A stretch of DNA of 64,000 nucleotides from an uncultured delta proteobacterium (GCA_963802945.1 CAWDKY010000028.1:96001-160000), one strand, 5' to 3'. Shown: positions 11,844 through 33,068, numbered from the stretch's first letter. The notes: generated by a model not told the origin, from the sequence alone. Numbers and translations are program-made.

Positions 11844-11857
11844 ATTTCGTTTTTCCT

Positions 11858-14212: not shown

Positions 14213-17200
14213 TAACGCAAACTACCACAACAAGGGAAATAAGAAATCGAGCCACCAATTTTGACTGCATAGCTATAAAATAAGGCCCTATAATTACATG
14301 CTTCTCTATCCTTAGAAGCGACTCTCTTACATTTTTCTTTTATGCATTCACTAAATGTATTATCGCAATTCGCTTTTCCCTTACAACCCTCATAACAATT
14401 ATCATGAGCATCGCAGCATTGGCTAAAACCCCATGGATCAGGAATACTCATACCATATGGCCCGCATCCTTTAAGCCCTTCAAGGTCGACAAAATTAACA
14501 GGGTCATTGTATACATATCCATAAAGATTTGTCTCTTTAGTAGCGAAATCAATAGGGTCTTTAGCAGTCCAGCGACCGATATTGGGATCATAATCACGTG
14601 CTCCGAAGCGGACTAAGTTGGTGCCACGGTCATGAAGGCCACCGGCAAAGCCGAATGGAATTGTAAGTGAAAGATTGGAGTCGGTGACGATGGTGCCAAA
14701 GGTGTCGTAACCAATTTTTTTGACGATGGTGCCAGAAGTGTCGATGACTGTTTTTAGGGAATCTATCTGGTCATAGGCAAGGTAATAAGTACTACCATTA
14801 TAGGTCATAGAGACCGGCATTCGACCATCGGCATAATTGAAGCGCAGTATCAAGTTGTCGCTGGCATCATAGACGGCCAGAAGGGTAGTTGCGCTGGCCC
14901 AGAGATATTTTTCTACAATGGTTCCATTAACCCTTTTGGCTATTCTTCTACCCATCGGGTCGTGGTCGTAAGTGATAACAGCGGAAGAGGGCAGGGTGGC
15001 AGAGAGGAGTTCTCCCCGCGAGGAATAAGTGGTAGTCATTGTTCCTGCGGGGGTTGTCTTCTGGGTCAAAAAGCCATCGGTATCGAATTGATAAGTATCG
15101 GTTCCAGCGGTGATGACTTGATCTTCAACCGAGACGGTATAGGAACGATTGACGCCCCGAAGGGTATTTATCTCGGTCATGCGGTTGCCATTGGCATCGT
15201 AGGTGTAAGACTCCACAACCATGCTATTCTTTTTGACTTCATTCAGCCTGCCGTTGGTATCGTAACCATAATTATAAGTATCCGTCACCCCATCCAACGT
15301 TTCGATTTTTTGAGTGATCCTTCCGGCCAGGTCACGGGTGAGGGTGTAACTGTATTTGTCTGCTCCTCCTACTGTGTAAGCAGAACCATCCAATTCCCCA
15401 TAACCGTTGAATGTCCAGGTATTGGTCATGTTTCCATCTGAAACCGATACAGGTAATCCGTTTTGGGCATTACGGGTTATGGTGTATGAACCGGAGCCGG
15501 TCAACAGCCCATCACTGTCATAGGTGAAGGATTGGGATGCCCCGGCATAGCTTAAAGAGGTAGGCCTGAAATCGTTGTTATAACCATACCCGATGGTCTG
15601 GTTAATCAGGCCTGTTCGGGTATCGGTGGTTAGGAGGGAACCATCATATCCGTAAATGACTTTTTCTGTAACTCTTGTCGCTTCCCCCAGGAGAGACGAG
15701 CAGTTATAGGTATAGCTGGTTACGCCTTCCGGGGTAGTGGTAGAACTCAGGAGACCGGTTGAGTAGGTATTCGCAATTTGCCTTCCTGATGGGAAGAGAA
15801 TGGATTTCAGGTTCCGTTCCTTGTCATAAGTGTATTGATAATTCCCGGACATAGGTGTGGCCATGGACCTGCGCAGGTTCACACCAGTGTAATCGAATCC
15901 ATAACTTATTGACTTGGGGTTCATTAAAATAGTCATGTTGCCATTTGCGTCATAGTCATAACTGATCATAGTGTAGTCCGGCAGGGTCTGGGCCTTAATT
16001 CTTCCTATTATATCATAGGTGTAAGAATAAGTCTTCCCATCGGGGGCAGTCAGGCTCTGAATATTGCCTTGATTGTCATAAGTAATTGTGGAAGTCCTGT
16101 TGCCGATTACGGCGGTAGTCAACCTTCCTTTGGTGTCGTATCCATAACCTAAGGGGAGAAGACCTGTCAACGTCATATTCTGGGTGAGCAGGTTCAAAGG
16201 ATTATAGGTGCGGGTTATCATCCTCCCCAAGGGCGATGTGCTGGTCAGAGTCCCAGTGAGGGTATTGTTGAGAATTGTCCAATTGTAGCCGTTTATGCCG
16301 AGAGTTTCTGTTATGAGGTCAGGGATTGAATCCCCATTATAGTCCTGATAGATTCTGGTGTCGGTGGCGATTAGCATGAGGCCGGCAGGGGTGCGTTGGG
16401 TGAATTCTTTGAGGTATTTGTACTTGTAAGCCGAGTCAAGGTCATATTTCATGGTCTGGTTCATGCCGCAGGAAGGTTGATTGGTTTCAGTCAGGCCGTC
16501 CGACGGAACGGGTGAAGGTGCTGGCAGAGCCGGAGGGGCTGGTGGTGATGGAGGTATAGGCCCCGGTGGAATCGGTATGGTCTTGGTAGGTGGTGGTGTT
16601 GCCTTCAGCGGTTTGCATGGTTACGGTGACAGTGCCGGAATTATCCACACTCCGGGGATAACTCCAGGATCCTCCTTCCGGATCCAAGATGTTGGTAGAT
16701 CCTACCGTTGCCATCGAATTGATGGACAAAATGGTTTCCCTTGGGATCGTATTCGTCGGTCATCAAACCATCCGAAGTATAGGTAAAGGAATAGGCGGAA
16801 TTATCCGGATAGGTGACAGTGCTGAGATGGTTATTGCCATCTACGGTCAATCGGGTCACAATTCCGTCCGGTGAAGTGATCGACAGGGGCACTCCACTTC
16901 CATCCCTCTGGATAGTGGTCTGGTTGCCGAAACGGTCCGTGATGGAAAGCAGTTTATCTGGCCGAATCATATCCAAAGGTGAGCAGGGTTTTGCCCGTCG
17001 CCAGGTCGATGGTGGATTTGTGGAGACCTGTGCTGTCCATGATATAGCCCTGGCCGTTTACATCGGAGAAAATTATATCTCCAGAAATAGTATAAGGTTT
17101 AATTCCTTCGGGTAGGGGGACTTTTCTAATCCGTGATGCGTTTGAGTCTGCTATATAGATGTTCCCTAAGCTATCTAACGCAACCCCTTGAGGAAAATAA

Positions 17201-20200
17201 AGGCTAGCCTCGGTCGCAGGGACTCCTTCATCAGAAGGATCATAATAAAGTCCTCCGTCCCCGGTTCCGGCGATAGTCATAATGATCCCGCTGGTATCCA
17301 CTTTTCTTATTTTTCGGTTACCCGTATCCGCTATATAAAGATTCCCTACATTGTCTAATGTAATGCCATTTGGGATAATGCTTTCTTGTGTAGCAGGATT
17401 CCCGTCACCACTTCCAGACCAACCCCCATTCCCCGCAATAGTTGTAATGATCCCACTTGCGTCCACCTTCCTTATCTGAAGAAATTCAACTATAAATACG
17501 TTTCCTTTATTATCTACGGCTACAACTTGCGGATAATTTAGGTTCGCCTGTATAGCTAGGCCTCCATCTCCACTAGATCCTCCCTGCCCATTTCCAGCAA
17601 TAGTACTAATAGTCCCACTTGTGTCCACTTTCCTTACCCGCCAATTATCCGGAATAAAAACATTTCCGATGGTATCCACAGCTACACTGCTTGGCCAACC
17701 CAGGCCCGCCTGTGCAGCCGGACCCCCATCTCCACTGAAACTATTATTTCCATTTCCCGCAACAGTGGTAATAATTCCATTTGTATCAATCTTCCTTACC
17801 CGATAATTCCAAGTATCGGCTATGTAGATATTCCCAGGGTCGTCTACTGCTACCCCATATGGCGGACCAATGCTTGCCTGTGTGGCCGGACCCCCATCTC
17901 CACTGAAACTATTATTTCCATTTCCTGCAACAGTGGTAATAATTCCATTTGTATCAATCTTCCTTACCCGATAATTCCAAGTATCGGCTATAAAAATATT
18001 TCCAATATTGTCTACAACGATTCCTTGTGGCTTATTAATTCCGGCCTGTGTCGCAGGTCCTCCGTCTCCGCCGTAAGGCCAGCCGGTTCCAGCAATAGTA
18101 AAAATCGGCCTGGTATTATTTTTTATAATTGTTCCGTCTCCTTTAAACAGAATACTTGGGTCGGCAGGATTCATATGATGATGAGAAGAAACCGACCAAC
18201 CTTCTGCAATAGTTTCCACTTCTCCTCGAGTTACTGTTATTGTGGTATTTTTCCAGGCTATTGCCTCTTCCCGAGCTGTGATTTCGGATACCACGTTTCC
18301 TGTTATTCCAAAGGATCGAACCAAATTTACACTTCCCCAATAGACTGCTTGGTAAACAAATCCGATCTGGATATAGGCAACAGCTGACCCATATTGTCTT
18401 CCGAGGTAATCCAAACCATCCCATATAAATTCCACCTTTTGATAAGGCTGTGGGGGAAGTGTGGTTTCAAAAGTGCGGCCGGCAATCTCCATTTTGACAA
18501 TGATATTCTTCAGGCTGGCTGGGACACTTGAACCGCTGGCCGGGATGGTAACCACTGATTTATATCCTTTTACCCGGCTACTGGCATAATGGAGGGTCAT
18601 GTCCGTACCTGGAATGGAGATATCTTCATGGAAAATTCGACTTCGGTTCTCCATATAGGAGTTAAAGCACATATTATTATCGGGAGGGGGTGGTGATGGT
18701 GGAGAATCATCAACGGGTTCACCTGGTGGATTCGGTAGGATAGCATCAATTGGAAAACCCCATGCCAAGTTGTAGTCCCAAACACTAAAGTGCGTATGCT
18801 CCACCCGCCAGTATGTGGATCCTGGTCTATATTGGTTCGGATCGGTGAGGCCAGGTGCAGGATATTGATTTATACCATCCGTATAGGCATCGACGATGCC
18901 GTCTCCGTTGGTATCGAGGAGGCGGACTACGACACCGTTATCCTGGGGCACCCAGACGGCACGATCTTGGTCATAATAGCCGACCGGTACTATTTCTCCC
19001 ACATTGAAACCGAGAAAATTGTTCACATAGACCACAATCGGTTTATCAAACCGTGCGCTTTGGGCATTATCTACAGAAAGCTCGGCACAATAGGTAAAGG
19101 CCGAGGTCGGCGGCAGTTTGGCCGGCATGGATTCCGGGGTCGTGTATTCCGTGGCCCGGACAGTGATGTTGGTCATGGGCTGTTCATTGCCCTGGGCGTC
19201 TTTCACCCAAGCCCGGTTATCCCCGGTTAGAACCATAGTCAGCGACCTAGTGCCACGGCATTGGTAGTGGTCGAGCTTTTGTGAGTCAGGATGGTTGCAG
19301 CATTGCCGTCAAAGGTAAGAGCCGTGGCCGCGATATCCGCTGGGATCATAACAATGGTCTCGGCATTGGCAATGGTGTTCCAGCCGATATTGACCTGGCG
19401 GTGAGCGGCAAGAAACCCGGTCTTCTGATAATCCACTGTGACCGTACCTCCGCCGTCCAGCGGAATGGAAAATCTGCCTGCGGCATCAGTTTGGGCCGTC
19501 CCATATTCCGGATGACTGTGGATGCCGACAATCGCACCGGACAGGGGATTTCCCGACCTGTCTTTCACCAGCCCGGTGATCAAGGAAAAACGATTGGGAT
19601 CATAACTTGGTATGGTGGCATTAGGAGGAACAAGGTCTTCGTAAGTCTTCCCGTAAGATCCGTCAGGAAGGGGAGAGACATTGGATGCCGGAGCGACGGT
19701 AAAATTGATGGACCCTGAAGTACCCCCTCCGGGTGCAGGGTTGGTGACTATTATCGGGTATGTCCCTTGTGTGGCAACGGCTGTTGCTGGGATGGAGGCT
19801 GAAAGTTGAGTGTTATTTACATAGGTGACCGTTACCGGCGTATTATTGAACTTGACCGAAGAGCTGGTGACAAAATTGCTCCCGGCCAGGCTCAAAGTAA
19901 AACCCGAACTGCCTGCTTTTATTGAACTTGGGCTTATTGCAGAAAGGAGAGGCGGTTATCGAAAGAGTCCCCCCAGTTGCCAGATGGGAAGCATCCAGAT
20001 TAATTTTAAGCTCTGTTCCGCTGACATAGGTGGTTGATTCGGTCTGGCCATTTACAAAAACACTTGTACCGGGAAAGAATCCTGTGCCGTAGATTGTGAG
20101 CGTCAATCCCGAGCCTCCGGCTTGAGTGGAAGCAGGATTAATGGCGGTTATGGCCGGAACCGGGTTTATCACGGCAAGCACCAGAGTATTGGAAGAACCG

Positions 20201-21411
20201 CCTTCCGGAGCCGGGTTATTGACCGTGATTTGAAAAGTGCCAGCCTGGTTAAAAAGGGTTGATGGGAGATTTACTTCCAGATGGTGATTGTCCACAAAGG
20301 TGACCGGAAGGGTGGTGTTTATGGAGGGCTGGAAAGAAATCGTTGATGTTTTAATAAATCCGGAACCTTCTATAGTCAGCTTTGTCCCGAGACTGCCCCG
20401 GGGGATACTGTTTGGACTGATGGAGAGGATCTCCGGTACGGGATTGGGAAGCTGGATCAGGGTCAGGCTGTCTGTTTGATCGTCCACCACCGCAGCTATG
20501 TTGGTGAAGGGATTAACGGCCACCCCCCTGCTTTGCTTTTTTAAAGGATATTTCTTAATGAGGGTATTGGTGTCCAGTTCTATATGATGAAGGGTCTGAG
20601 TGCTGCTACAGATGACCAGGACACTGTTGTCTAGTGGATTCATGGCCACATCCAGGGGATATCGGTCTGTGGCTATGGAGACCGTATTCCAGTTGTTTAA
20701 GTCAACAACCGAGATAAAGGACTCCCAGAGATTGGCCACTGCCACCAGATGGGTTTCGGGATTGATGCCGATGGCCCTGGGGAAATGACCTACAGGGACC
20801 TTCCTGGTTTCCAGAAAGGTATTCAAATCAATGACCGAAAGGTTATGGTCCAATTCATTGGCCACCAGGGCCAGTTTAAGCAGCGGGTCCACGGCGATGT
20901 CCTTGGGCCCATTCCCCACCCTAACGGTCCTGATTTCCTGCATCTGCGCCAAGTCCACCACCGAAACCGTATTTGTCAAAAAGTGGGTGACCAAAGCCAG
21001 ATGGGGACCTGCGGTGCCGCCGTCATAGACTGCCACGCTGTAAGGTCCAAACCCGACCTTTACAGTTCTCTGAACCTTATTAGTATTCAGGTTAATAACG
21101 GACAAGGTACTACCCAGGGAGTTAGCAACGACAGCCAGATTTAGGGTGGCATTAATGACCAGGCCGGTCGGGAGGTTGCCTATAGGAACGACGGCCTGGA
21201 TGGTTTGGCTGTTCAGATCAACCACGTTGACCTTTTTCGGCCAGATGCTGACCACCAGGGCCTGATTCGTCTGGGGATTGATGGCCAGACAGACGGGTAT
21301 GCCGTCGAGAGGGATATTGATATCTTCTGCAGTGGAAGATGCGTAGCCGAGGGTAAAAATTAAACACAGGGGAATGAATAATAGGACAGGCAGTCTTCGG
21401 GATAGTTGCAT
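14212..21411 (-). CDS. Giant teneurin-like secreted YD/Rhs toxin (~2400 aa), split into six ORF pieces by frameshifts; PLA2-like tip
   Basis: In order: Sec signal, YVTN/YncE propeller, IPT/TIG Ig domains, carboxypeptidase-regulatory-like domain, FN-plug-like region (EDISIPGTDMTLHYASSR), NHL repeats (GDGGPATQA), YD shell, Rhs core DPVNFVDLEG, tip GCGP...CCDAHDNCY. Confidence 0.85.
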
Positions 21412-21493: not shown

Positions 21494-21509
21494 AGCAAGA
21501 GGTATGCCA
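21494..21509 (-). promoter_or_regulatory. Sigma54 -24/-12 promoter of the toxin gene
   Basis: Minus strand TGGCATACCTCTTGCT is GG-N10-GC and near consensus; ~85 bp upstream of the ATG at 21411. Confidence 0.8.
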
Positions 21510-21575
21510 TGGCTGGAAATACCAACCATTACAAACTGTTAAGGTTTTTAGGAGGATTTGGCAGAGATGAGTGGT

Positions 21576-21613
21576 TGCACAATTCTATGTGCACATGCAC
21601 AAAAACCTGTGCA
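21576..21613. promoter_or_regulatory. Tandem enhancer (EBP) binding palindromes
   Basis: TGCACAATTCTATGTGCA (21576-93) and TGCACAAAAACCTGTGCA (21596-613), 20 bp start to start. Confidence 0.8.
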
Positions 21614-21769
21614 TTGAAGCGCAGTTTTTTTGTATCGCTTTAGTAGAATCCTTGTCGCGAACTCCCATTGGTTTTTGGGAAAAACTTATTTTAATCCTGG
21701 AACAAAACATCTATCGAGATTGATGGTACGAACAGGAAGAGAAACCGGGAATCATGACCTCTTATGGGC

Positions 21770-23314
21770 TCAATTGAGCTGATAGCTTTTTTCATTGAAA
21801 ACGCGCATACAGGCCGCCACCACTTCCGGATCGTAAAGGATGCCTTTGTTTTGAGCAATTTCACCCAAGGCCACATCAATAGTGTAGGCTGGGCGGTAGG
21901 GACGATAGGAAGCGATGGCCTCCACCACATCGGCCACAGCCAGAATCTTGGCCTCCAGTAGGATTTCGTCACCTGAAATTCCCTTTGGGTATCCGGAGCC
22001 GTTTATTCTTTCATGATGCTGTAGGGTGATTTGGGCGATAGGCCAAGGAAAATCTATATCTTTTAAGATATCATAGCCCACACTCGGATGTTTTTTAATC
22101 AGACTGAATTCCAGATCGGATAATTTGGTGGGTTTGCTGAGGATCTCTGACGGCACAGATATCTTCCCTATGTCGTGGATAGCCCCGGACATGCGTATGC
22201 CATCCACCTGATCTTCACTGAGACCCATTTCCTGGGCTATGGTCCTGGCCAAATCGGCCACACGACGCTGATGTCCGGAAGTGTAAGGGTCCCGTGCTTC
22301 CACGGTCAAAGACATGGCCTGGATGACACCGCCCATGGCTTTCCTGAGTTTTTCGATGCTGGTTCCAACTTTTTCTTCGGACAATTTTTTCTGGGTGATA
22401 TCCTGAATATGAGAAATAAAATATAGAGGGGTTCCTTCTGTATTCCGGACAAGAGAACTGGAAACCTGGCCCCAGACCGTATTCCCATTTTTGTGAAGAT
22501 ACCTTTGCTCAAAAACGGCCCTTTTGACTTCTCCTAAAATAATTCGTTTCATAAACTCCTGGCTCATAGGCCGGTCTTCCGGATGGGTAATGTCATTCAC
22601 CGTCAGGCTTTCAAGTTCTTCTTTGCTATAGCCGAACATCTTACACATGCGGTTATTGACTTCCAGGTGTTTCCCGACGGCATGGATAAGGCAAATGCCG
22701 TCATTGGCATTTTCAAAAACCAGACGAAACCGTTCCTCACTTTCAATCAATTTTTGTTCTGAAAATTTATGACTGGCAATATCCATCATCATGTGCAGGA
22801 AATGGAGTGGACGGCCGTTAATATCCTTTAATAGTTGGATCGTGAGGTTTGTCCAAATGGGATTTCCATCTTTTCGGATATATCGTTGTTGCTTGTCAAT
22901 ATGATCCATTTCTCCCTGAAGCAGTTTGCTGACCAACTCCAGGTTGTTATCTAAATCATATGGAAAGGTGAGGTCTGGATATTCCATTGAAATCAACTCC
23001 TGCTCTGCGTAACCGAGGAGGTCACAAAGCTTCGGATTTACCAATTGATAACGGAAATCCAAGGACACCAAAGCTGCCCCAAGGGGAGATTGTGCGAAAA
23101 ACTGCTTGAAGGAGTTTTTTACTTCTCTTAAAGAGTTATTTGCTTTTTCCAATTCCTTTTTTTTGAGATGAAGTTCCTCCCTGACCACTTCCAATTCCTC
23201 TAAAGCGCCGGAAAGTTGTTCCATAATCTCTGGTGTCGCAAGGTTTGAAGAAAATTGCCCACGCTCCTTAAAAACCTCTTGCGCCGCTTCTGTTAACCTA
23301 TGCTTTTCCCTCAT
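21770..23314 (-). CDS. Coiled-coil/PAS/PAS/HD-GYP cyclic-dinucleotide phosphodiesterase
   Basis: Two PAS-PAC repeats; ARDPYTSGHQ, HDIGK, HHERINGSGYP, VADVVEA, RPYR. Confidence 0.92.
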   Translation of the reverse strand: MREKHRLTEAAQEVFKERGQFSSNLATPEIMEQLSGALEELEVVREELHLKKKELEKANNSLREVKNSFKQFFAQSPLGAALVSLDFRYQLVNPKLCDLLGYAEQELISMEYPDLTFPYDLDNNLELVSKLLQGEMDHIDKQQRYIRKDGNPIWTNLTIQLLKDINGRPLHFLHMMMDIASHKFSEQKLIESEERFRLVFENANDGICLIHAVGKHLEVNNRMCKMFGYSKEELESLTVNDITHPEDRPMSQEFMKRIILGEVKRAVFEQRYLHKNGNTVWGQVSSSLVRNTEGTPLYFISHIQDITQKKLSEEKVGTSIEKLRKAMGGVIQAMSLTVEARDPYTSGHQRRVADLARTIAQEMGLSEDQVDGIRMSGAIHDIGKISVPSEILSKPTKLSDLEFSLIKKHPSVGYDILKDIDFPWPIAQITLQHHERINGSGYPKGISGDEILLEAKILAVADVVEAIASYRPYRPAYTIDVALGEIAQNKGILYDPEVVAACMRVFNEKSYQLN

Positions 23315-23482
23315 AATTTTATAAAATTTCCTCTCCGTAGAATAGTTAAGTTATCCCAAATTTCCGGACCTATATACCTACTATGGCTTAAATTAAAGAA
23401 AAATCCGATTTTATGATCTTGTAAGGATTTTAACCATAAATTCAAAAAAAACCGGACTTTACTCTCCGTAAACTATTTAAGT

Positions 23483-23498
23483 TGCAGGAATTGTACCA
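23483..23498 (-). promoter_or_regulatory. Sigma54 -24/-12 promoter of the HD-GYP gene
   Basis: Minus strand TGGTACAATTCCTGCA is GG-N10-GC. Confidence 0.7.
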
Positions 23499-23548
23499 CG
23501 AACAATTCATTGTTATTATTACATATTTATTTTTATGATTAACGGCCC

Positions 23549-23587
23549 TTCACAAGCTCTTGTGCACTTTGCACAATTTTATGTGTA
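23549..23587. promoter_or_regulatory. Tandem enhancer (EBP) binding palindromes
   Basis: TTCACAAGCTCTTGTGCA and TGCACAATTTTATGTGTA, each one mismatch from TGCACA-N6-TGTGCA, 21 bp start to start. Confidence 0.72.
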
Positions 23588-23730
23588 ATGTTTATAGTAA
23601 GCTGAGAAAAAAGTGATGCAAAAATAAAGCCTTGGGCCGACCCTGGAAGGTTTAAGACCAAATCGAAAAAACAGGTGCCGGAGGGACTGGAAGAAAAACT
23701 ACCCAAAAGTGTGGGTGAAATAAAAACGGT

Positions 23731-25083
23731 CTAATAATTTATTCCTAATTCATTCATTTTGTTAATCAGGGTATTACGATGAATATCCAATAATTCAGCA
23801 GCCTCTTTCTTATTAAACCTCACTTTTTCGAGAACTTCGATGATAAAATTTTTTTCAAAATTACTGATAGCGTCTTTTAATTTCATGATCTGAACGGTTT
23901 CTTTTTTACGAGAAATTAACATCGAAACATCTTTAAGGTTAATCACCGGATCGTTGACAACGGTTGTTAATCGTTCAACCAAGTTTTTAAGTTCTCGAAC
24001 GTTACCCGGCCAGTCGTATTTGATCACAACCTCTGCGGCTTCTTTGGAAATTTTTTTGGCCGGCTTTCCTGTATTTCTCGAATAGGTTTCCAAGAAGTAA
24101 TTAATCAATAAAATAATATCATTTGGTTTCTCTCTCAAGGCCGGCAATTCTATCGGTAAAACATTTAAACGATAAAAAAGATCCTCACGAAAATTACCTT
24201 TGGCAATCAATTGGAGAAGGTCTTTATTAGAAGCGGCAATAAAGCGAACATCCAGTTTAACCACTTTCCTGCTGCCTATCTTTTCAAATTCCTTTTCCTG
24301 AATCACCCTAAGAAGCTTACTTTGCATGGCGATTTTAAGAGAATCAATGTCATCCAGAAAAACCGTGCCCTTGTCGGCAATTTCCAGCTTGCCGATCATC
24401 GTGGTCGAGGCACCGGTAAAAGCCCCTTTTTGATAGCCAAAAAGTTCACTTTCCATTAATGATTCCGGTATAGCGGCACAATTGATGACAACAAAAGGCT
24501 GATCCTTCCTGGGGCTCCGTTTATGTATGGCCCGGGCTACCAATTCCTTGCCGGTCCCGCTTTCTCCTTGAATGAGTACCGTGCCTTCCGTTTGCGAATA
24601 CATCGATATCAGCTCAAAGATTTTGATCATTTTTTCATCCTGTCCGATCATCTCCTCGAACAAATGATTAAATCTCCCCAACTCATTTTTAAGATAGATA
24701 ACTTTTCTGATCAGGTCACGTTTTTCAAGGGCTCGTCGGATAATCTTAAGAACCTCATGTACATCAAAAGGTTTAACGATATAATCATAGGCTCCCAGTC
24801 TGATGGCCTTTACCGCTGTTTGAATATCCTTCACGGCGGTGATCATGATCACTTCGATGCTCGAATCCAATTCTTTAAATTTTTCCAACAAATCAAGGCC
24901 GTTATTATCCGGCAAGAGGATATCCAGCAGGATAAGGTCAACGGCATTTTGATTAAAAAGATCTACGGCTTCGGCCCCTGATGCGGCCAGCAATACACTA
25001 AAATCATCTTTTAAAACCATTTTAAAGGATTGAAGGACCCCGAATTCATCATCCACAACTAAAATGGTCGATTTCTTTTCCAT
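23731..25083 (-). CDS. Sigma54-dependent NtrC/AtoC-family response regulator (REC-AAA+-Fis HTH)
   Basis: LVVDDE and LLDILLP receiver; GESGTGKE, GAFTGA, FREDLFYRLNV, WPGNVREL; C-terminal HTH. Walker B reads LDDID. Confidence 0.95.
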   Translation of the reverse strand: MEKKSTILVVDDEFGVLQSFKMVLKDDFSVLLAASGAEAVDLFNQNAVDLILLDILLPDNNGLDLLEKFKELDSSIEVIMITAVKDIQTAVKAIRLGAYDYIVKPFDVHEVLKIIRRALEKRDLIRKVIYLKNELGRFNHLFEEMIGQDEKMIKIFELISMYSQTEGTVLIQGESGTGKELVARAIHKRSPRKDQPFVVINCAAIPESLMESELFGYQKGAFTGASTTMIGKLEIADKGTVFLDDIDSLKIAMQSKLLRVIQEKEFEKIGSRKVVKLDVRFIAASNKDLLQLIAKGNFREDLFYRLNVLPIELPALREKPNDIILLINYFLETYSRNTGKPAKKISKEAAEVVIKYDWPGNVRELKNLVERLTTVVNDPVINLKDVSMLISRKKETVQIMKLKDAISNFEKNFIIEVLEKVRFNKKEAAELLDIHRNTLINKMNELGINY

Positions 25084-25191
25084 CCTAAGCTCCTCCAGGG
25101 GTTTGCTTTACTCCCCCGATAGTTACCATATTCTTAATCCCACCTTTTATCAGATAATTGTAATTTTTATTACAAGTCAAGAGAAAAAGCT

Positions 25192-25231
25192 TGCACAAAT
25201 AATTGTGCAGCGATGCACAAAAAAATAGGCA
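25192..25231. promoter_or_regulatory. Tandem enhancer (EBP) binding palindromes in the divergent intergenic region
   Basis: TGCACAAATAATTGTGCA (25192-209) and the degenerate TGCACAAAAAAATAGGCA (25214-231). Confidence 0.75.
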
Positions 25232-25316
25232 CGCCGCCAAGGAGAGAAAAAAACCTAAAAATGATAAAAGCCTGTAACTCATTCTTATTATTATGATAAC
25301 ATTTTTTAAAAAGATC

Positions 25317-25332
25317 TCGTATGTTTTTTGCA
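25317..25332 (+). promoter_or_regulatory. Possible non-consensus sigma54 promoter of the acyltransferase operon
   Basis: TCGTATGTTTTTTGCA has the correct spacing and a TTGC -12, but CG instead of GG at -24; ~85 bp downstream of the enhancer pair. Confidence 0.4.
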
Positions 25333-25372
25333 ACTTATTTTTTTATGCCTTATAATTAAGGAGGGTGTTTTT

Positions 25373-26351
25373 ATGCAATTAAGCCTGAGTAAATTTCTCC
25401 AATGGAAAATCAACATCTTGTTATGTCAAAAACTTGGATGGAATTTTGCCTTTTTTTATATCATGGTTCTGGGCAACCTATACTTCCTTTTCAAACGAAA
25501 AGAGAAGAAAAAGATTAAAGAGGCGGTTAAAATGGTTTTTGCTACGCAAAAAGGGCGATCTGAAAAAAGGACTATCGTCAGGGGAGTCTTTAAGGGTATA
25601 TTATGGCATTATTATGAAAAAATCTTTAACGTTTATACCTCACTTGAACGGTTGAAAATTTTTTTTAATCAGCATATAGAACCAGATGGGATACCGGCTA
25701 TAGAGCAGGGGATTGCCAGGGGGAAAGGTGTTCTCCTTGTTACCGGTCATTTTGGAGGGATTGAATTTATACCCAAGTACTTGGCGACTCAAAATTATCC
25801 GGTTACGATTCTGGCCAAGTTTTCATCTGAACATCTTAAAAATATCTCTGTGAAACAGGCGGACAAGCTGGCCATTAATCTTATCAACGCCAATGAATGT
25901 CCTAATATCATAAAAGCCATCATCCAGGATTTGAAACAAAACAGGATTGTTATCACACAATGTGACGAGATAGAAGAGTGGAGGCCTTCCTTAAATGAGG
26001 AGGTTTCTTTTTTGGGAAATACGAATTTATCTGGATAAAACCATCAATACCTTGATCAGAAGAGGGAATACTTTCGTTGTATTTGCGGTTATGCATAGAA
26101 TCAATAACCAGGTGTATAGATTTATTGCCCATCCATGGGAAAAAATAATTAATTCCGGGGAGCACTCAACCAATAAATCCCTGGGAGAGATGGTTTTGAA
26201 ATATCTTGAACAATATATATACCAATACCCAGAAGAATGGTATCAATGGAAAAAAGTTCCCGAGATTAAGATCGTAAAAGGGCGGGCTGTTCCAGAGAAA
26301 GAAAGAAAGGCTCAACTGTGGTTGAAACCGGCCTTTGGAAGAATTCCATAA
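25373..26351 (+). CDS. Lipid A lauroyl/LPLAT-family acyltransferase (frameshift near 26020)
   Basis: GKGVLLVTGHFGGIE (HX4E), VSFLG, C-terminal IYQYPEEWYQW; two overlapping ORFs, 25328-26038 and 25995-26351; AGGAGG RBS before ATG 25373. Confidence 0.82.
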
Positions 26352-26435
26352 TTAAAAAAGTTATCAATCCAGTGACCCTCCGAAAATTCTTTGAAATTTC
26401 GAGAAAAATAATACCTTGTTGACAGGAGCGGGCCT

Positions 26436-28007
26436 ATGGATGTCTTAATTATTGCCGGAATATCCAAACACAGCGGAAGTCAATTCGGGGTAAAGCAAGA
26501 GATCATCAAAGATGGAATGGTGATGAATTATGCCAACTTGCAAAAGTACTTCGGTATTCAACCCAATGATGGCTTTTCAAGTTTTAGTACCCCTTATTTG
26601 GCGGGAATCTATTTGTATAATTACCTTTCTCGTCGTGGGATCAAATGCGGACTTATAAATTTCTTGGATAAAGAAATAGAATATTTTCAGAAACTTCTGC
26701 AACAGTCACCCAAAGCCATTGCCCTCTCTTCAACCTTCTTAATTGATATTAGATCTGTAAAAAAAGTCACCCAAATTATACGCCAATCTGCTCCGGATAT
26801 TAAAATTATTCTGGGCGGCCCGTTAGTATACAACAGTTATCTTTTATATCAGCTTAGGGACAGTGACTATGACACGGCTTCTTGTGCCCAAGATTATTTC
26901 TTTCTAAATACCGACGAGCAGTATTATGAGGATATTGATTTGTTTGTAATCGAAGAACAGGGGGAGGAAACCCTATACCGAGTGGTTGATGCCATAAAAA
27001 ATTGCCGTGATTGTACCGAGATAACAAACCTGGCTTACTATAAAAATGGCCAAGTATTTTTTACCGCCAGAAAACCCGAGCATAATGATTTTAGTGAAGA
27101 CTTAGTTCAATGGGATCAGATTCCGGATGAATATATCTATCCCATTTTTCCCATGAGAGGCTCACGAGGTTGTCCATATCGATGCCGGTATTGTAATTTT
27201 TCTCCAAATCGAACTTTTCGTTTAAAAAGTGCAGAAATTCTAGGACAGGAGGTGGCTGCTTTAGTAAATACGGGAAAGGTTAAAATAATCAGATTTACTG
27301 ATGATAATCTTTTTTTGACCCGCAAGCAGGTGGAAGAATATTGTCGTAAGATTATTGAGGTAGGAAAGGGAATAAGATGGTCGTCATTTATCCGGGCAAA
27401 CTCCATCTCCAAAGAAAATGTTAAATTACTTAGAGATTCCGGATGTATTTCTACCATGATCGGCATGGAATCCGGTAATAAAAACATCTTAAAGGAAATG
27501 AACAAAGAAGATACGCCGGAGCATTATCTGGAAGTAATAGAGTTATTAAACAAACATGGCATTTCAACTCAGCTAACCTTCCTAATCGGTTTTCCCGGTG
27601 AAACTCCCGAGACCATTGAAGATACTGTTAGCCTGATAAACCAATTCCATCATCAAGGCCCGGCCATTAACGAGGTATCGATTTTCCCTTTTGGATTAGC
27701 CCCATTGTCTCCGATATATGGCCCTGAATATAGGAAAAAATATAATTTGAGCGGATATATGATGAATTGGTCTCATTGCACGATGAATTCAGAAGAGGCA
27801 AAAAAATATGCCGCGGGACTCTTTATTAATTTTCAACATGCTCACCACCACTATGGGATTGAAGAATTACTATTGTTGGAGACAACTAAATTAAAAAAAA
27901 TTTCAGAACTTCGTTCACAAATTCGAAAAGCTGAGATATGCAAGTATCCAGCAAAACATATCGACCAATTCTGGAACGACATGAAACAATTAGTCCTTTT
28001 CGGTTAA
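26436..28007 (+). CDS. Cobalamin-binding radical SAM enzyme (class B methyltransferase-like)
   Basis: B12-binding-like N-terminal domain (KIILGGP); SRGCPYRCRYC CxxxCxxC; FTDD, IGMESG, IGFPGET. Confidence 0.88.
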   Translation: MDVLIIAGISKHSGSQFGVKQEIIKDGMVMNYANLQKYFGIQPNDGFSSFSTPYLAGIYLYNYLSRRGIKCGLINFLDKEIEYFQKLLQQSPKAIALSSTFLIDIRSVKKVTQIIRQSAPDIKIILGGPLVYNSYLLYQLRDSDYDTASCAQDYFFLNTDEQYYEDIDLFVIEEQGEETLYRVVDAIKNCRDCTEITNLAYYKNGQVFFTARKPEHNDFSEDLVQWDQIPDEYIYPIFPMRGSRGCPYRCRYCNFSPNRTFRLKSAEILGQEVAALVNTGKVKIIRFTDDNLFLTRKQVEEYCRKIIEVGKGIRWSSFIRANSISKENVKLLRDSGCISTMIGMESGNKNILKEMNKEDTPEHYLEVIELLNKHGISTQLTFLIGFPGETPETIEDTVSLINQFHHQGPAINEVSIFPFGLAPLSPIYGPEYRKKYNLSGYMMNWSHCTMNSEEAKKYAAGLFINFQHAHHHYGIEELLLLETTKLKKISELRSQIRKAEICKYPAKHIDQFWNDMKQLVLFG

Positions 28008-28090
28008 ATTGTTTGTATGAAATTAAAGATAAATTTTTTGAGGGGCAAGAAAATTCTAAGTAGTTTTAAAAGACCCTTCAGGAAATAATA

Positions 28091-30064
28091 ATGAAAAAAG
28101 AAGTAAGTTGTTTCAATACCAAGGGGGTCCTTGAATATGTTAAGGAATACAATCCTGAAGCTTATTCTGCCCTTTTTCGCAACCTTGATCCTGAAATCGA
28201 TGCTCATCCAGACCCGGAGAGTTTTTTACGAGATCACAACAATTGGATCTCATCCACAATTGCTTCAGAAATATTCAAAAGAGCGAGATTAATACTCAAG
28301 GACGAGATGGCCCCTATTAAAATAGCCAAATATGTCGTTGAAAATACTACATTAGGATACAGGGGAATACTTATTAAAGCATTCTGGTCTAATAAGAATG
28401 CACTTAAACACTTACAAAGAATTAATGATAAATGGAACAGGAACAAAAAAGTTGAACTCGTAGAAATTAAGATGAATACAGCGATTGTTCGACTGCATTG
28501 GAATCCCCAAATGGATGTTTCTAAGGATTTGTGTCTATACAATCAAGGGAATTATATTTTTATTTCGAGTATATGGGGTGGGACACCAATGTTCCTCGAC
28601 GAAGAATGCTGTTATTTTAATGGTGCACCTTATTGTGAATTCCATTTGAGGTGGCCTTTAAGAAATAAAGTTTATGAGATTTTTTCCAGATTTTTCTCTT
28701 CCCGGTCGGTTATGATGGAAACCATCATGGAAATGGAGGAAGACAAAAAAGTTATAGAGGAAAAATATGATGAGGTCAATCGATTGAATCTGGAATTAAA
28801 TTATAAAATCAAACAACTTTTAGCTATACAAGAAACCGGAAAGGCAATTCTCTCTGTTCTTGACTTGAATAATTTATTAACCGTTATCATGAATATTCTA
28901 TCTAATGTATGCCAAATTCATCGTGCCCTGATCATGCTGGTTAATGAAGGGAAGGGATACTTAGAATATTTATATGCAGTGGGTTTTCCAGGAGAAATCC
29001 CTCAAGAAATCATAAATTACAAACTTCCCTTAAGTCGTGTCAGTAACATTATGGCGCGGGTGGCCAATACCGGAAAATCGGAATATATTCCCGAGGTGAA
29101 TAGTTCCTTATTAAACAGAGAGAATATTGTTTTGGCCCTTGGAAAACCCACCTCAGTTTATGTTGTTCCTCTCATAACCAGGTCCAGAATAATCGGTGTA
29201 ATCGCCACCGATTCCATTGAAGGCCAAGGCATTCCCAAGGAAATCCGGGAGACCCTGGATGTCTTCGCCCCCCAGATTGCCATAGCCATTGAAAATGCCA
29301 GACTGTATAACCAACTCCAGAATCAGATGGAAGAGTTAAAAACATCCCAGGACCTGCTCAGCAGGACTGAAAAACTCTCTTTCTTTGGTAACCTGGCGGC
29401 CAGGTTGGCCCATGAAATCAAAAATCCGATGGTGGCCATAAGGACCTTTATTCAGATGCTGCCCCAAAAATATGATGATGAAGAGTTTAAAAAAGATTTT
29501 TATAATATAGCCTTGGAAGAGACCAACCGAGTAAACAATTTACTTACTGAGCTTCTTGATCTAGTCAAAACCAAAGAATCCCGCTGTGAGATGGCTGATC
29601 TCCACTCCTTGATCGAGAAAATGATCCTTTTGGTCTCACCGGAGAGCAAGTCGAAACAGATCGAGATTGTAAAAAATTTTAGCCCCCGAATTGGGCCGAT
29701 ATGGATGGATCCGGAAAAAATAAAACAGGTTATATTAAACCTGTTATCTAATGCCGTTGAGTTTACCCCCAAGGGAGGAAGGATTGAAATCATTACAACA
29801 GAAATTGTAGAAAAAGAAAAAACGCCAAGGATTTGTCTTGTAATTCAAGATAATGGAGCAGGGATTCCCCAGCCTATTATTCATAAAATATTTGATCCGT
29901 ATTTCACCACCAAACATAAAAGCAGCCTTCACAACGGAACCGGTCTGGGGCTGTTTATTGCTTATCAAAATATGTTGGATCACCAAGGAACCATCGAGGT
30001 GGAAAGTAAGGTCAATGAAGGGACAAAATTCACCTTGTTTTTGCCTGTAACAGCCCCGTCTTAA
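28091..30064 (+). CDS. Soluble sensor histidine kinase with an N-terminal V4R/HNOB-like domain, GAF, HisKA and HATPase_c
   Basis: No TM helix seen; LCLYNQG...EECCYFNGAPYCEFHLRW is V4R-like; GAF ends AIAIENARLY; AHEIKNP, NLLSNA, DNGAGI, GTGLGL. Confidence 0.85.
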   Translation: MKKEVSCFNTKGVLEYVKEYNPEAYSALFRNLDPEIDAHPDPESFLRDHNNWISSTIASEIFKRARLILKDEMAPIKIAKYVVENTTLGYRGILIKAFWSNKNALKHLQRINDKWNRNKKVELVEIKMNTAIVRLHWNPQMDVSKDLCLYNQGNYIFISSIWGGTPMFLDEECCYFNGAPYCEFHLRWPLRNKVYEIFSRFFSSRSVMMETIMEMEEDKKVIEEKYDEVNRLNLELNYKIKQLLAIQETGKAILSVLDLNNLLTVIMNILSNVCQIHRALIMLVNEGKGYLEYLYAVGFPGEIPQEIINYKLPLSRVSNIMARVANTGKSEYIPEVNSSLLNRENIVLALGKPTSVYVVPLITRSRIIGVIATDSIEGQGIPKEIRETLDVFAPQIAIAIENARLYNQLQNQMEELKTSQDLLSRTEKLSFFGNLAARLAHEIKNPMVAIRTFIQMLPQKYDDEEFKKDFYNIALEETNRVNNLLTELLDLVKTKESRCEMADLHSLIEKMILLVSPESKSKQIEIVKNFSPRIGPIWMDPEKIKQVILNLLSNAVEFTPKGGRIEIITTEIVEKEKTPRICLVIQDNGAGIPQPIIHKIFDPYFTTKHKSSLHNGTGLGLFIAYQNMLDHQGTIEVESKVNEGTKFTLFLPVTAPS

Positions 30065-30129
30065 AAAAAACACTTTACAATTGGACGCTTAACTCTTAAA
30101 AGAACCTAAGGCAGAATAGGTACCGACTC

Positions 30130-31275
30130 ATGGAAATCGCTCAGCTAAAGGTCTATCAAATCTCTCTTCCTTTTCAAATGGATATTTCTCATGCCTTAAC
30201 TAAAGCTGCTTCTGCGGACAATATTGTTGTCGAAGTGATTGCCGATGGAGGGAGAATAAAAGGCTACGGCGAAGGAACGCCGAGAAAATACGTCACCGGG
30301 GAATCTCAGCAAGAAGCAGTTGCCAATATCCATCAGATAATCCGGAAAAATTCATTCCCTTGGGAATTAAAGGATGTTTCCGAGATATGGAATTTCGTGG
30401 ATAGGCTTCACGACGAAAAAAAATACAACCCGGCTATTTGTGCCCTGGAAACGGCCTTATTAGATGCCTGGGGAAAGGATCAGGAGCGGAACCTAATCGA
30501 CTTTTTCCCTCACGATTATCTTGCCTCCAACATTTATTATGGCGGTGCATTTCCATTAGGAGATAACCGGAAACTTACCGAACGTTGTCTATTGATGAAA
30601 AAGATGAAAATAAATAAACTTAAGCTTAAAATGGGTAAGAATTTTAATACAAACCAAGAGGCGTTTGAGATAATCAGTCAGGTATTCGAGGATGATTATG
30701 ATTTAAAAATTGATGTTAATTGTGTTTGGAATAAAGACCTGGCCTTAAGGCATATCCCTCTTTTGAAAAAATACCGGGTAAAGGTTGTCGAACAACCCAT
30801 GATGCCGAACGATCCGGCTACGGCCGAATTTTCCGAGGCCCTTAAAGGCAGCGGGATCATCTTAATGGCCGACGAATCGGCTTGTTCTTTTGGAGATATA
30901 CAAAAAATTATTGAAGATGGATATTATAAAATGATAAATATCCGATTATCAAAAATGGGTGGTTTTCGAAAATCGCTTAAGGTAATCGAGCTTTTACGGA
31001 AGGAAAACCTTTTTTTCCAAATCGGCTGTCACCTGGGAGAATCAGGAATTCTTTCTGCGGCTGGCAGGATATTAAGTCTCCTCTGTCGCGATGCTCTTTA
31101 TTATGACGGATCGTATGATAGCCTATTATTAAAACAGAATATTACTACTGAAAATGTTTCTTTTGGATCGGGGGGTGAAGCTGGGCCGTTAAAAGGACCC
31201 GGCCTGGGTGTAACGATCAATGAAAAGAGTTTAAATCAACTAACGGTGGATCCTGTTCGTGTTATTAAAAGATAA
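30130..31275 (+). CDS. Enolase-superfamily enzyme (muconate cycloisomerase/dipeptide epimerase subgroup)
   Basis: GYGEGTPRKYVTGES; KLK catalytic motif; metal ligands DVN, EQP, ADES; C-terminal GPGLG. Confidence 0.85.
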   Translation: MEIAQLKVYQISLPFQMDISHALTKAASADNIVVEVIADGGRIKGYGEGTPRKYVTGESQQEAVANIHQIIRKNSFPWELKDVSEIWNFVDRLHDEKKYNPAICALETALLDAWGKDQERNLIDFFPHDYLASNIYYGGAFPLGDNRKLTERCLLMKKMKINKLKLKMGKNFNTNQEAFEIISQVFEDDYDLKIDVNCVWNKDLALRHIPLLKKYRVKVVEQPMMPNDPATAEFSEALKGSGIILMADESACSFGDIQKIIEDGYYKMINIRLSKMGGFRKSLKVIELLRKENLFFQIGCHLGESGILSAAGRILSLLCRDALYYDGSYDSLLLKQNITTENVSFGSGGEAGPLKGPGLGVTINEKSLNQLTVDPVRVIKR

Positions 31276-31284
31276 AGACTGAAG

Positions 31285-31626
31285 ATGCCCATAGACTATT
31301 CAAAACTTTTTGACCGGGAAGCCTTGAAGAGAATTCTTGCCAAATACCGGAAAAGGATTCTGAAAGAGATTGATTCCGCAAAAGACCTCACATCCCTGCT
31401 TATGAAAGGAACCCAGAGAGGTTGGACGAAGGGTGAGCTCCTGAAAATTAAAACCCATTTTGTAATTCTGGGTAAAAAGATCCCCATATTTATGGTATTC
31501 CTTTTGCCGGGCGGCGTTATACTTTTACCTGTTTTAATTGAGGTGTTGGACCGTAGGAAAAACAACGTCCCTGTTTCTGAGGATCGCAGAAAGGCCCTCC
31601 AAAAAAGTTCACGAAAAAAACTTTAA
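31285..31626 (+). CDS. Small protein with one hydrophobic hairpin (LETM1-like LLPGG motif)
   Basis: Last gene of the operon (9-bp gap); IFMVFLLPGGVILLPVL; basic tail with two DRRK motifs. Confidence 0.55.
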   Translation: MPIDYSKLFDREALKRILAKYRKRILKEIDSAKDLTSLLMKGTQRGWTKGELLKIKTHFVILGKKIPIFMVFLLPGGVILLPVLIEVLDRRKNNVPVSEDRRKALQKSSRKKL

Positions 31627-31639
31627 GGTAGGCAAAACG

Positions 31640-33068
31640 TTAAAAGGCTTCTCTTAGAAGATCCCGCTTGGTTTTCATCAATTGCTTGCTCAGTCTGATA
31701 GGATAGATACGAGGATTTTTAAAGCGTTTGAATTCGGAACCCAATTGTTCTAAATTTTGTCGACTATTTTCCTGTATCTTTTTTAAGGACGGTTTACGAT
31801 AAACCAATCGGCCTTCTCGAAAAATCGGAATCAGTAAATCCTGCCTTGAGAATTTGGGAGGAATAACCTTGCTGACATGGGGAGTGGTGGGATGATAAAC
31901 CCGCAATGGCTTTGTCTCTAATTTTTCTTCCTCCAGAAACATGACATCGCCTTGCATCAAACCCGAATCATCAAAAAACCGGATTACCTTTTTCATGCCG
32001 GGATTGGTTATCTTTTCCGGATTATCCGACCGTTTAATTTTGGGTTGCATCCGTCCGTTTTCCTCTATGGCCGTAAGCTTATAGACGCCGCCCAGGGCTG
32101 GGGTAGAGTAAGCGGTTACCAGTTTGGTTCCCACCCCCCAGGAATCAATCCGTCCTCCTTGCTTCTTGATACTTTTGATAATCCATTCATCCAGGTCACT
32201 GGAGGCGAAAATCTTGGCCTCATTAAATACCTTCCCTATCCAGCATTTTTCTGGCTTCTTTGCTTAAGTAAGCCAGGTCTCCACTGTCAAGACGAATGCC
32301 TTTCAATACCCCTTTACCCTGGGCTTTTAATTCCTTGCCGATTTTAATGGCATTAGGTATTCCGCTTTTCAGGGTATCGTAGGTATCCACCAATAACAAG
32401 CACTCCTTTGGATACACCCGGCAATAGGCCCGGAAAGCTTCTAATTCCGAAGGAAAGGATTCGATCCAGCTATGGGCTACGGTCCCGCGAACCGGTAGGT
32501 CGAATAATTTTCCGGCCAGGATATTGGATGTACCCTGGGCCCCGCCGATAAAAGCCGCTCTGGCGGCCCCAATGGCCGCATCCGGCCCATGAGCGCGTCT
32601 GAGACCGAATTCAATCACCGGATCTCCTTTAGCGGCCGTACAAACCCTGGAAGCCTTGGTGGCGATCAGGGTTTGGAAATTCATAATGTTAAGCAAGGCT
32701 GATTCAAGGAATTGGGCTTCAGGTAAAGGGGCCGTGACCCGGATGATGGGTTCATAAGGAAAAACAACCGTGCCTTCCGGCATGGCAAAAAGGTCACCGG
32801 TAAAGCGAAACTTTTTCAAATACCGGAGGACCTCCTTGGGAAAAATTGCCAAATTTTTTAGGTAGGACAAGTCCTCGGAGGTAAAATGAATATTTTTTAT
32901 ATAATCAACAACCTGCTCAAGGCCGGCGGCAATACAATATCCCCCTTCATCTGGGACCTTGCGAAAGAAGTAGTCAAAATTGGCCCTTTGATTTTCTTTG
33001 CCGTTGACCAGGTATCCGCCGACCATAGTCAGTTCATACATGTCGGTCAATAAAGCGAGATTACGCAT
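31640..33068 (-). CDS. pncB: Nicotinate phosphoribosyltransferase (frameshift near 32225)
   Basis: LLTDMYELTM, EFGLRRAHG, GTVAHSW, LLVDTYDT, IRLDSGDL; continues as GTKLVT...LGGVYKL...KITNPG in ORF 31640-32134. Confidence 0.92.

Follow-up and report, generated by a model that had tools for sequence, protein, structure and literature searches.

The window analysed here is a 64,000-nucleotide stretch of DNA from an uncultured delta proteobacterium, corresponding to positions 96001-160000 of contig C28 in a source genome (G000) of 4.37 Mb and 72 contigs. Between 21.5 and 31.6 kb of the window lies a candidate signalling module, in which five plus-strand genes form an operon (in order, an acyltransferase, a B12-binding radical SAM enzyme, a histidine kinase, an enolase-superfamily enzyme and a small protein with one transmembrane segment) that is divergent from the gene of an NtrC-type activator carrying a GAFTGA motif (Table 1). 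A first-pass annotation of the window had described this arrangement and proposed it to be an autoinducer-type circuit. Our annotation with Pfam, curated NCBIfam models and motif scans found the same gene organization, and we conclude that it represents a real and apparently undescribed signalling module. For comparison we used a set of 41 related genomes, 14 of which belong to the genus of the window, and a survey of other species in which one genome per species was scanned. This survey gave 253 loci, the best 80 of which provided the survey counts on gene neighbourhood given below, and its homologues were labelled solely as metagenome-assembled genomes of Thermodesulfobacteriota, Desulfobacterales or Desulfatiglandales.

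Table 1. Positions of the genes and predicted regulatory elements in and around the signalling module (coordinates of the window).
Feature	Position	Strand	Details
Teneurin-like/RHS polymorphic-toxin locus	14212-21411	-	Consecutive open reading frames; candidate regulon target
Open reading frames with YD shell, PLA2-like C-terminus	16641-16976 and 14212-16464	-	
Open reading frame with teneurin NHL	16954-19236	-	
Open reading frame with TIG and TTR	19239-19895	-	
Open reading frame with signal peptide, beta-propeller and TIG	19843-21411	-	
Canonical sigma-54 -24/-12 promoter	21494-21509	-	TGGCATACCTCTTGCT; toward beta-propeller/teneurin-like genes
Tandem operator 1	21576-21613		TGCACAATTCTATGTGCA + TGCACAAAAACCTGTGCA, 20 bp apart; about 87 bp upstream of the -24 element
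PAS-PAS-HD-GYP protein, predicted cyclic di-GMP phosphodiesterase	21770-23314	-	HD_5 135 bits; HD at residue 380, GYP at residue 441
Canonical sigma-54 promoter	23483-23498	-	TGGTACAATTCCTGCA; toward the HD-GYP gene
Tandem operator 2	23549-23587		TTCACAAGCTCTTGTGCA + TGCACAATTTTATGTGTA, 1 mismatch each, 21 bp apart; about 71 bp upstream of the -24 element
NtrC-type response regulator (activator)	23731-25083	-	REC, AAA+ with GAFTGA (residue 220), Fis-type helix-turn-helix
Tandem operator 3	25192-25231		Divergent intergenic region; TGCACAAATAATTGTGCA + TGCACAAAAAAATAGGCA, 22 bp apart
-24/-12-like element	25317-25332	+	TCGTAT-N5-TTGCA, non-canonical -24; about 107 bp from operator 3
LpxL/LPLAT-family acyltransferase	25373-26351	+	Lip_A_acyltrans 38.7 bits (cut-off 22.3); HFGGIE at residue 126
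B12-binding radical SAM enzyme, type A	26436-28007	+	CX3CX2C at residue 246
Soluble histidine kinase, 657 residues	28091-30064	+	V4R-like about 1-200, coiled coil, GAF 257-401, HisKA H441, HATPase
Enolase-superfamily MLE-subgroup (MR_MLE) enzyme	30130-31275	+	
Protein of 113 residues	31285-31626	+	One hydrophobic segment (residues 59-77); window's genus only
Nicotinate phosphoribosyltransferase (NAPRTase)	31640-33068	-	Two frames via one extra base near 32228

Pairs of the palindrome TGCACA-N6-TGTGCA, spaced 20-22 bp centre to centre, are located upstream of the operon, the HD-GYP gene and the teneurin-like locus, so that the one shared tandem palindrome claimed by the first-pass annotation is indeed present at all three. 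Chance would give 0.00-0.02 matches to the palindrome in the window, and the whole 4.37-Mb genome contains five perfect copies, three of them in the window, and four tandem pairs, three of which are again in the window. The pattern TGGYAYN5YTGCW matched just twice in 64 kb, on the minus strand both times, where 0.29 matches were expected; each of these two canonical sigma-54 promoters lies downstream of a tandem site, at a distance of 71 or 87 bp, and a sigma-54 gene is present in the source genome. A parallel scan for sigma-70 promoters found 33 sites against 26.5 expected, and neither it nor the terminator scan rose above shuffled sequences. In the orthologous intergenic regions between activator and acyltransferase genes, a site with two mismatches or fewer was found in 36 of 40, and it was tandem in 27. 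Within the genus, each of the eight genomes bearing the cluster contains between one and five perfect sites and the six genomes lacking it contain none, while a reversed control pattern was absent from all 14; since these genomes are relatives, this match is descriptive and not a statistical test. The activator itself scored 94.8 bits on Response_reg, 234.1 on Sigma54_activat and 47.2 on HTH_8, the domain set of an NtrC-type protein, and it reached no curated equivalog among the NCBIfam models (AtoC, NtrC, PrsR, LuxO). Based on these observations, we suggest that the palindrome behaves as the predicted operator of the activator, which the comparison supports, and the predicted regulatory wiring as a whole is well supported by comparative evidence.

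The genes behind these promoters were then considered as the candidate regulon. The HD-GYP and teneurin-like genes had been proposed as targets of the activator, and this prediction is strengthened by the canonical promoters at the right distance and by the conservation of sites before homologues: the homologue of the beta-propeller gene in G001 is preceded by a tandem site and TGGCATCTATTTTGCT, and the HD-GYP homologue in G010 by a site and TGGCATGTTTACTGCA. The HD-GYP gene adjoins the activator gene in three of seven genus loci. The teneurin-like call was likewise borne out, with Pfam matches to TEN_NHL, TTR_TEN1-4, TEN_YD-shell and RHS and a PLA2-like tip; its open reading frames abut or overlap in different frames, which may reflect several genes or frame breaks. 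Elsewhere in the genus the sites front a patatin operon (G005), a caspase-like operon (G006 and G007) and a response regulator (G007). Two further modules of the source genome, at C27:59729-59847 and C30:210936-211055 (L123 and L124), combine the operator pair with TGGCAT-N5-CTGCT. They are about 130 nt long, share a conserved AATGGAC..CGGCACC box, and are 74% alike to each other and 89% to a region of G005 (contig C30), the similarity to G005 stopping near the predicted start site. This end of conservation suggests that the promoter is kept and the transcript is not, and the genes that follow differ, being an ORF6N-like gene and a TIR protein at C27 and a membrane protein at C30. A Qrr-like small RNA at these two modules was considered and rejected, because Rfam gave no match and conservation stops at about the start site. 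Taken together, the predicted regulon is small, species-specific and enriched in competition and second-messenger genes.

The kinase is the presumed sensor of the module. It shows no N-terminal hydrophobic segment in our motif and segment scan, in agreement with its earlier description as free of transmembrane segments. It had also been described as a V4R protein, and this part stands as homology detected between profiles with the characteristic motif aligned, whereas the Pfam V4R model was not reached. Residues 1-250 had no Pfam match, and the V4R model (PF02830; gathering score 31 bits) gave none for residues 1-260 at E<=1. Distant homologues scored 11.9-13.2 bits and other family members 17-26 bits on this model, all under the cut-off, and 9 of the 10 distant family members that were scanned had their sub-cut-off V4R match at the same position, with kinases, adenylate cyclase or a receiver domain as outputs. 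When the alignment of the N-domain was compared by hhalign with 20 V4R proteins above the cut-off, residues 67-190 matched with a probability of 91.1% and an E-value of 1e-6, and the Cys...Glu-x2-Cys...Cys motif was aligned between the two. The corresponding residues C148, E171, C174 and C182 are invariant in all ten sequences compared, and their spacing equals that of the zinc site of MopR. Profile searches of the PDB returned only GAF relatives for the kinase alignment (A1) and, for the N-domain alone, one chance-level match (E 0.015) and no V4R entry; the Pfam V4R search of the source genome likewise gave chance-level matches only. We thus describe the sensor N-domain as V4R-like by profile comparison, and not as a member of Pfam V4R by score. 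In a profile search of 1.84 billion representatives, the sensor family numbered 1102 proteins with a threshold of E<=1e-3; this fell to 417 with E<=1e-10 and to 76 with E<=1e-30. One of its members, P0171 (1040 residues), is an ABC exporter with membrane and ATPase domains fused to a V4R-like domain at residues 683-864, which may be another hint that this domain family handles transported small molecules.

The enzymes of the operon are relatives of known families rather than known enzymes. The acyltransferase belongs to the late-acyltransferase family by its Pfam score and by its HX4[DE] motif, which takes the form HX4E, and its best scores on curated LpxL/LpxP/LPLAT equivalogs were 42-50 bits against cut-offs of 209-540, so that we regard it as a family relative and not as LpxL itself. 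The type A radical SAM enzyme scored 94.9 bits on Radical_SAM and 27.4 bits on the B12-binding model (under its cut-off of 32.1), its nearest model is the PhpK-family methyltransferase TIGR04479 (310 bits, cut-off 600), and it is restricted to the window's genus (G000, G001, G006, G007 and G011). For the enolase-type enzyme, the nearest structure match was dipeptide epimerase 3jva (E 4e-22), and its closest groups are the dipeptide epimerases and the N-acyl-amino-acid racemase/OSBS group. All 61 members compared have K167, D195 and E221, and 58 of the 61 have D248. Where 3jva has the Lys of its NIK motif, presumably the second catalytic Lys that MLE-subgroup racemases and epimerases carry at the end of strand 6, 58 of 61 members have Arg (Arg272 in the window). 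The residue expected of a racemase or epimerase is thus replaced, and a classical two-base racemase is unlikely. This replacement bears on one alternative, in which the cluster is a substrate-induced pathway of amino-acid or acyl-amino-acid conversion that acylates, racemises and deacylates. Such a pathway would suit the kinship of the enolase-type enzyme with epimerases and racemases and the M20 amidohydrolase gene (TIGR01891, 358 bits) found just downstream in 12 of 80 loci, but it would have to work without the second Lys for two-base racemisation; moreover, the window and most loci have no M20 gene, the acyltransferase is a relative of LpxL, of the membrane type, and not a GNAT, and the predicted regulon is not metabolic. 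We regard this explanation as very improbable.

Next, we compared how these genes travel together. Ten of the 41 related genomes contain all three of the acyltransferase (E<=1e-20), the enolase-type enzyme (E<=1e-30) and the sensor N-domain, and the remaining genomes contain none of them; each component is found at one place per genome, the acyltransferase match of G000 being in two pieces across a frame break. The first-pass annotation had expected the kinase to co-occur with three enzymes; this holds strictly for the acyltransferase and the enolase-type enzyme and fails for the radical SAM enzyme, which varies between genomes (type A, type B, both or none) and therefore does not belong to the core. 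Two of the ten genomes represent other families. Their sensors are 37-40% identical and are joined to PAS and HisKA_3 or to a hybrid output, NarL-type regulators are found nearby, and the acyltransferase and enolase-type genes are still adjacent. In the survey, the acyltransferase gene lies upstream of the kinase gene in 48 of 56 loci with room for it, the enolase-type gene downstream in 53 of 64, and 39 of 41 have the activator gene in divergent orientation. In 22 of 80 loci the enolase-type gene is succeeded by a gene for a PP-loop ATPase-like protein. The cluster occurs in 7 of the 13 other genus genomes and adjoins the NAPRTase gene in 6 of these 7; since it is absent from 6 genus genomes, gain or loss as a unit is likely. 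The GC content is 0.38-0.41 across 22-32 kb of the window and 0.49-0.50 in the flanks on either side, so that the module lies 9-11 points under its flanks, yet it occupies the same NAPRTase-adjacent site in those six genomes.

This strict co-occurrence also bears on a second alternative, an envelope or lipid-homeostasis response, in which the kinase would sense a hydrophobic compound, of endogenous or exogenous origin, or a lipid intermediate and the enzymes would remodel a membrane lipid instead of making a signal. The membership of the acyltransferase in the lipid A late-acyltransferase family and the weak matches of B12 radical SAM relatives to lipid or hopanoid methylases fit such a response. 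So does the background that V4R-like domains are best known as sensors of substrates (XylR/DmpR type), and since most loci have no sigma-54 promoter before the enzymes, feedback control is not required. On the other hand, none of the 41 genomes has the enzymes without the sensor, which would be unusual for housekeeping or stress lipid enzymes, and the genes of the candidate regulon encode toxin, phospholipase, caspase-like and cyclic di-GMP functions and not envelope functions. In addition, an N-acyl amino acid synthase (NAS) fused to a homologous sensor kinase, described below, argues for a self-made ligand. A homeostasis response is therefore unlikely in our judgement, though it is the strongest of the three alternatives.

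The fusion proteins provide what may be the best argument, as a hint, for a self-made and tailored acyl ligand. Five of five family members with an N-terminal extension of 230-270 residues carry in it a FeeM-type NAS domain. The FeeM matches were 24.1-46.9 bits, three of the five being above the cut-off of 27 bits, and weak LuxI-family matches were found too; the two relatives that have a source name are labelled Spirochaetota. From residue 3 onward the window kinase aligns to one such fusion protein from its residue 264 (27% identity, E 3e-19). A metagenome scan with one fusion protein found no fusion locus, and a scan with an alignment found two, in both of which a B12 radical SAM gene directly follows the fusion gene and is itself followed by an SDR gene. 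The radical SAM core at the fusion loci is 25-26% identical to types A and B, and one of the two loci also carries a stand-alone FeeM/LuxI-like gene. Because two unrelated types of acyltransferase recur with the sensor and a B12 radical SAM enzyme, the ligand may be a tailored acyl compound made by the cell itself. As to known synthases, the first-pass annotation had seen no LuxI, LuxS or RpfF gene in the window. For LuxS (PF02664) this extends to the whole source genome, where FeeM-type synthases (PF21926) also had no match; LuxI (PF00765) had no match in this genome either, a weak blank as the model matched no control genome, and RpfF, CqsA and LuxM were not searched for.

Variation within the module points in a similar direction. 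In 40 of 80 loci the acyltransferase and kinase genes are separated by a B12 radical SAM gene, mostly one of type B, which is only 20-28% identical to type A. In the genus, type A alone is found in G000 and G001, both types in G006, G007 and G011, type B alone in G004 and G010, and neither in G005. Pairwise identities among eight genomes were used to compare this pattern with the N-domain, which diverges more than any other part of the kinase (58-97% in the genus, or 58-87% if the almost identical G006 and G007 are not compared with each other; for residues 201-530 the range is 76-98%). The G000 N-domain is closest to that of G001 (80.5%), both genomes having type A only, and the kinase core, activator and enzymes of G000 are closest to those of G005 and G010. 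This divergence is suggestive of a receptor that tracks its ligand. The same variation could belong to a small bioactive-lipid cluster, antimicrobial or surfactant, with pathway-specific two-component regulators, a product that acts on other organisms and a kinase that reads some other cue. Tailoring enzymes vary in this way in natural-product clusters, the co-regulated genes are competition factors, and NAS products and related lipids are often reported as antibiotics or surfactants (PMC4897644). Three features speak against such a cluster: the kinase gene lies inside the enzyme operon in nearly all loci, the fastest-changing part of the kinase is its putative ligand-binding domain, which would better fit a product-tracking receptor, and the cluster has no conserved gene for transport or resistance. 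We thus consider a bioactive-lipid cluster improbable, more so than lipid homeostasis.

Based on these observations, we suggest that the module is a self-contained two-component sigma-54 signalling system with a self-made acyl-type ligand, a reading for which we see about even chances. The cytoplasmic kinase would use its V4R-like N-domain to bind a small, hydrophobic metabolite of the acyl type, the GAF domain may serve as a second input or as a transmitter, and the kinase would set the phosphorylation state of the divergently encoded activator. The activator in turn would bind the tandem TGCACA-N6-TGTGCA sites and drive sigma-54 promoters of a small, species-specific regulon, which here would include the PAS-HD-GYP gene, the secreted teneurin-like/RHS toxin locus, probably the operon itself, and the two further promoter modules. 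The ligand would most likely be made by the enzymes that invariably accompany the sensor: the LpxL-like acyltransferase may acylate an acceptor that bears a carboxylate, the enzyme of the enolase superfamily may act at the carbon beside this carboxylate, and the optional B12 radical SAM enzymes may tailor the product into species-specific variants. The observations cover which genes are present, how the operators and promoters are arranged, how the genes co-occur and the homology of the sensor to V4R proteins; from these we infer that the enzymes make the ligand, and infer likewise its chemistry, the direction of the kinase response and its possible sharing between cells. These parts differ in strength. 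A self-made ligand is in the balance, an autoinducer role is plausible, and a signal truly shared between cells is clearly the less probable case; because the kinase is cytoplasmic, such a signal would need to cross the membrane.

Several findings weigh against the proposal of a self-made signal under feedback control. First, sensor and enzyme co-location is equally typical of catabolic and stress operons, and no enzyme of the operon reaches a curated equivalog cut-off, so that the chemistry is a guess. Second, 8 of 56 loci have kinase and activator with no acyltransferase upstream, and 11 of 64 loci have no enolase-type gene directly downstream (4 of them having one elsewhere in the locus), from which it follows that the kinase can exist without adjacent enzymes; the related genomes are, in addition, not independent samples. 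Third, G010, with type B, and G005, with no radical SAM enzyme, share similar N-domains (87.4%), and since the radical SAM gene adjoins the 5' end of the kinase gene, their joint variation could be due to linkage alone. Fourth, the acyltransferase gene of the window is interrupted by a +1 frameshift, with an extra base near 26020-26022; the frame ends at 26038 and continues in frame +1 to 26351. Three orthologues are single frames of 326 residues, and contigs from two public DNA runs, which were used for this question alone and represent relatives (85-97% identity, small shares), are 95% and 97% identical there and do not contain the extra base. The NAPRTase orthologue in G005 is similarly one frame of 475 residues, and we consider both breaks probable assembly indels, the alternative being a real strain-specific loss. 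Finally, the evidence for feedback is mixed. The first-pass annotation had placed the synthase operon under positive feedback, and the operator upstream of it agrees with this. However, the -24/-12-like element of the operon lacks the GG, it overlaps a sigma-70-like promoter (TTGCAA-17-TATAAT, 25328-25356; itself weak evidence), 45 of 53 surveyed loci, mostly of other species, lack a -24/-12 element in the 260 nt before the acyltransferase gene, and 14 of 40 loci have a canonical promoter directed toward the activator gene. The element T[TCG]G[TC]AT-N5-TTGC[AT] is found before the operon in seven of seven aligned genus loci (as TTGTAT, TCGCAT, TTGCAT or TGGTAT), and its -24 is canonical (TGGTAT) in G007 alone. 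The operon is probably part of its own predicted regulon, yet with a non-canonical -24 and an overlapping sigma-70-like promoter, feedback on it is uncertain.

Comparison with known systems places the proposed signalling system near several of them and within none. The CqsA/CqsS-LuxU-LuxO-sigma-54 pathway of Vibrio resembles it in having a lipid-type synthase and a kinase that acts on an activator of the NtrC type (REC-AAA+-helix-turn-helix) with a small regulon for group behaviour. However, CqsA is a pyridoxal phosphate enzyme, while an LpxL-like acyltransferase and an enolase-type enzyme are found here; CqsS is a membrane protein, while the kinase here is a soluble V4R-like/GAF protein; and in place of LuxU and Qrr RNAs we saw no Hpt protein, protein-coding targets and no Qrr-like RNA in Rfam. 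The activator scored 357 bits on the LuxO model, whose cut-off is 800. A soluble kinase pathway that feeds a sigma-54 activator is also known from the H-NOX/HqsK-LuxO system of Vibrio, in which H-NOX is a separate nitric oxide-sensing haem protein, whereas the sensor domain here is within the kinase. XylR, DmpR and MopR share with the module the sigma-54-dependent output and, by sequence comparison, the V4R-like fold with its Cys/Glu/Cys/Cys motif. They differ in that their sensor is fused to the AAA+ activator and reads catabolic substrates, whereas the sensor of the module is joined to GAF and histidine kinase domains, sits among biosynthetic-type enzymes and does not reach the Pfam V4R model. 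The diffusible signal factor (DSF) system RpfF/RpfC/RpfG is similar in its fatty-acid-type signal, its kinase and its HD-GYP output on cyclic di-GMP. Unlike RpfG, which is a response regulator, the HD-GYP protein here bears PAS domains and is a candidate transcriptional target, and unlike RpfF, no crotonase-type synthase was seen in the locus. Lastly, PrsK/PrsR of PEP-CTERM/exosortase systems are described as a kinase with a novel sensor domain and a sigma-54 regulator, with a conserved upstream motif and -24/-12 elements (PMC1569441). The likeness comprises the novel sensor kinase, the sigma-54 regulator, the motif with -24/-12 and a genetic link to long-chain acyl-amino-acid synthases. PrsK is transmembrane, whereas the window kinase has no membrane segment, and the scores on the two models (TIGR02915 and TIGR02916) remained below cut-off, at 404.7 against 502.6 bits for PrsR and 98.5 against 300 bits for PrsK. 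None of the defining components of CqsA/CqsS-LuxO, DSF/RpfG, PrsK/PrsR-NAS or V4R effector sensors is found here. Full-text literature searches, judged mostly from listings, turned up no description of the cluster or of NAS-kinase fusions.

A wider reading would be that Desulfobacterota have a new family of diffusible lipid autoinducers. LpxL-like and single-base enolase-type enzymes would produce an acylated carboxylate as the signal, which interchangeable B12 radical SAM enzymes would methylate or tailor otherwise into species dialects. V4R-like/GAF kinases would be the readers and act through a sigma-54 activator, with an output of contact-dependent toxins, phospholipases and cyclic di-GMP turnover, and Spirochaetota would have an analogue with a fused FeeM-type synthase. 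We offer this tentatively, as we think it somewhat doubtful. Sulfate-reducing Desulfobacterota live in dense consortia and biofilms, and the listings of our literature searches contained no genetically defined pair of signal synthase and receptor for them. The module is a concrete candidate for such a pair, with a receptor domain, an operator, a small competition and cyclic di-GMP regulon, and natural variants with zero to two tailoring enzymes. If the enzymes do make the ligand, the system would bring a new signal chemistry, a quorum receptor of the V4R type and anaerobic B12-dependent diversification of signals. Even if the ligand is not shared, the sensor family, with its 1102 representatives, is an uncharacterised input domain of kinases, cyclases and an ABC transporter fusion.

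Some further observations concern individual loci. In L018 (G029:C8, 12747-15540), from a distant family, the trio of sensor, acyltransferase and enolase-type genes is followed by a gene for a patatin-like phospholipase and by a third kind of B12 radical SAM enzyme, the nearest model of which is HpnJ (under cut-off), and the kinase is followed by three NarL-type regulators in place of the sigma-54 activator. Loci with a divergent activator and no acyltransferase (e.g. L055, L067, L075, L080, L086 and L089) could be receivers without a synthase. In the window, the teneurin-like locus is followed by orphan RHS tips. These RHS/YD-shell C-terminal cassettes lie on the minus strand within 7403-13435, one at 9512-10972 with a PLA2-like tip and one at 11858-13435, and each is followed by a small open reading frame that could be an immunity gene. 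A TIR protein with an RNA-polymerase-alpha-CTD-like part is encoded at 7403-8314, also on the minus strand.

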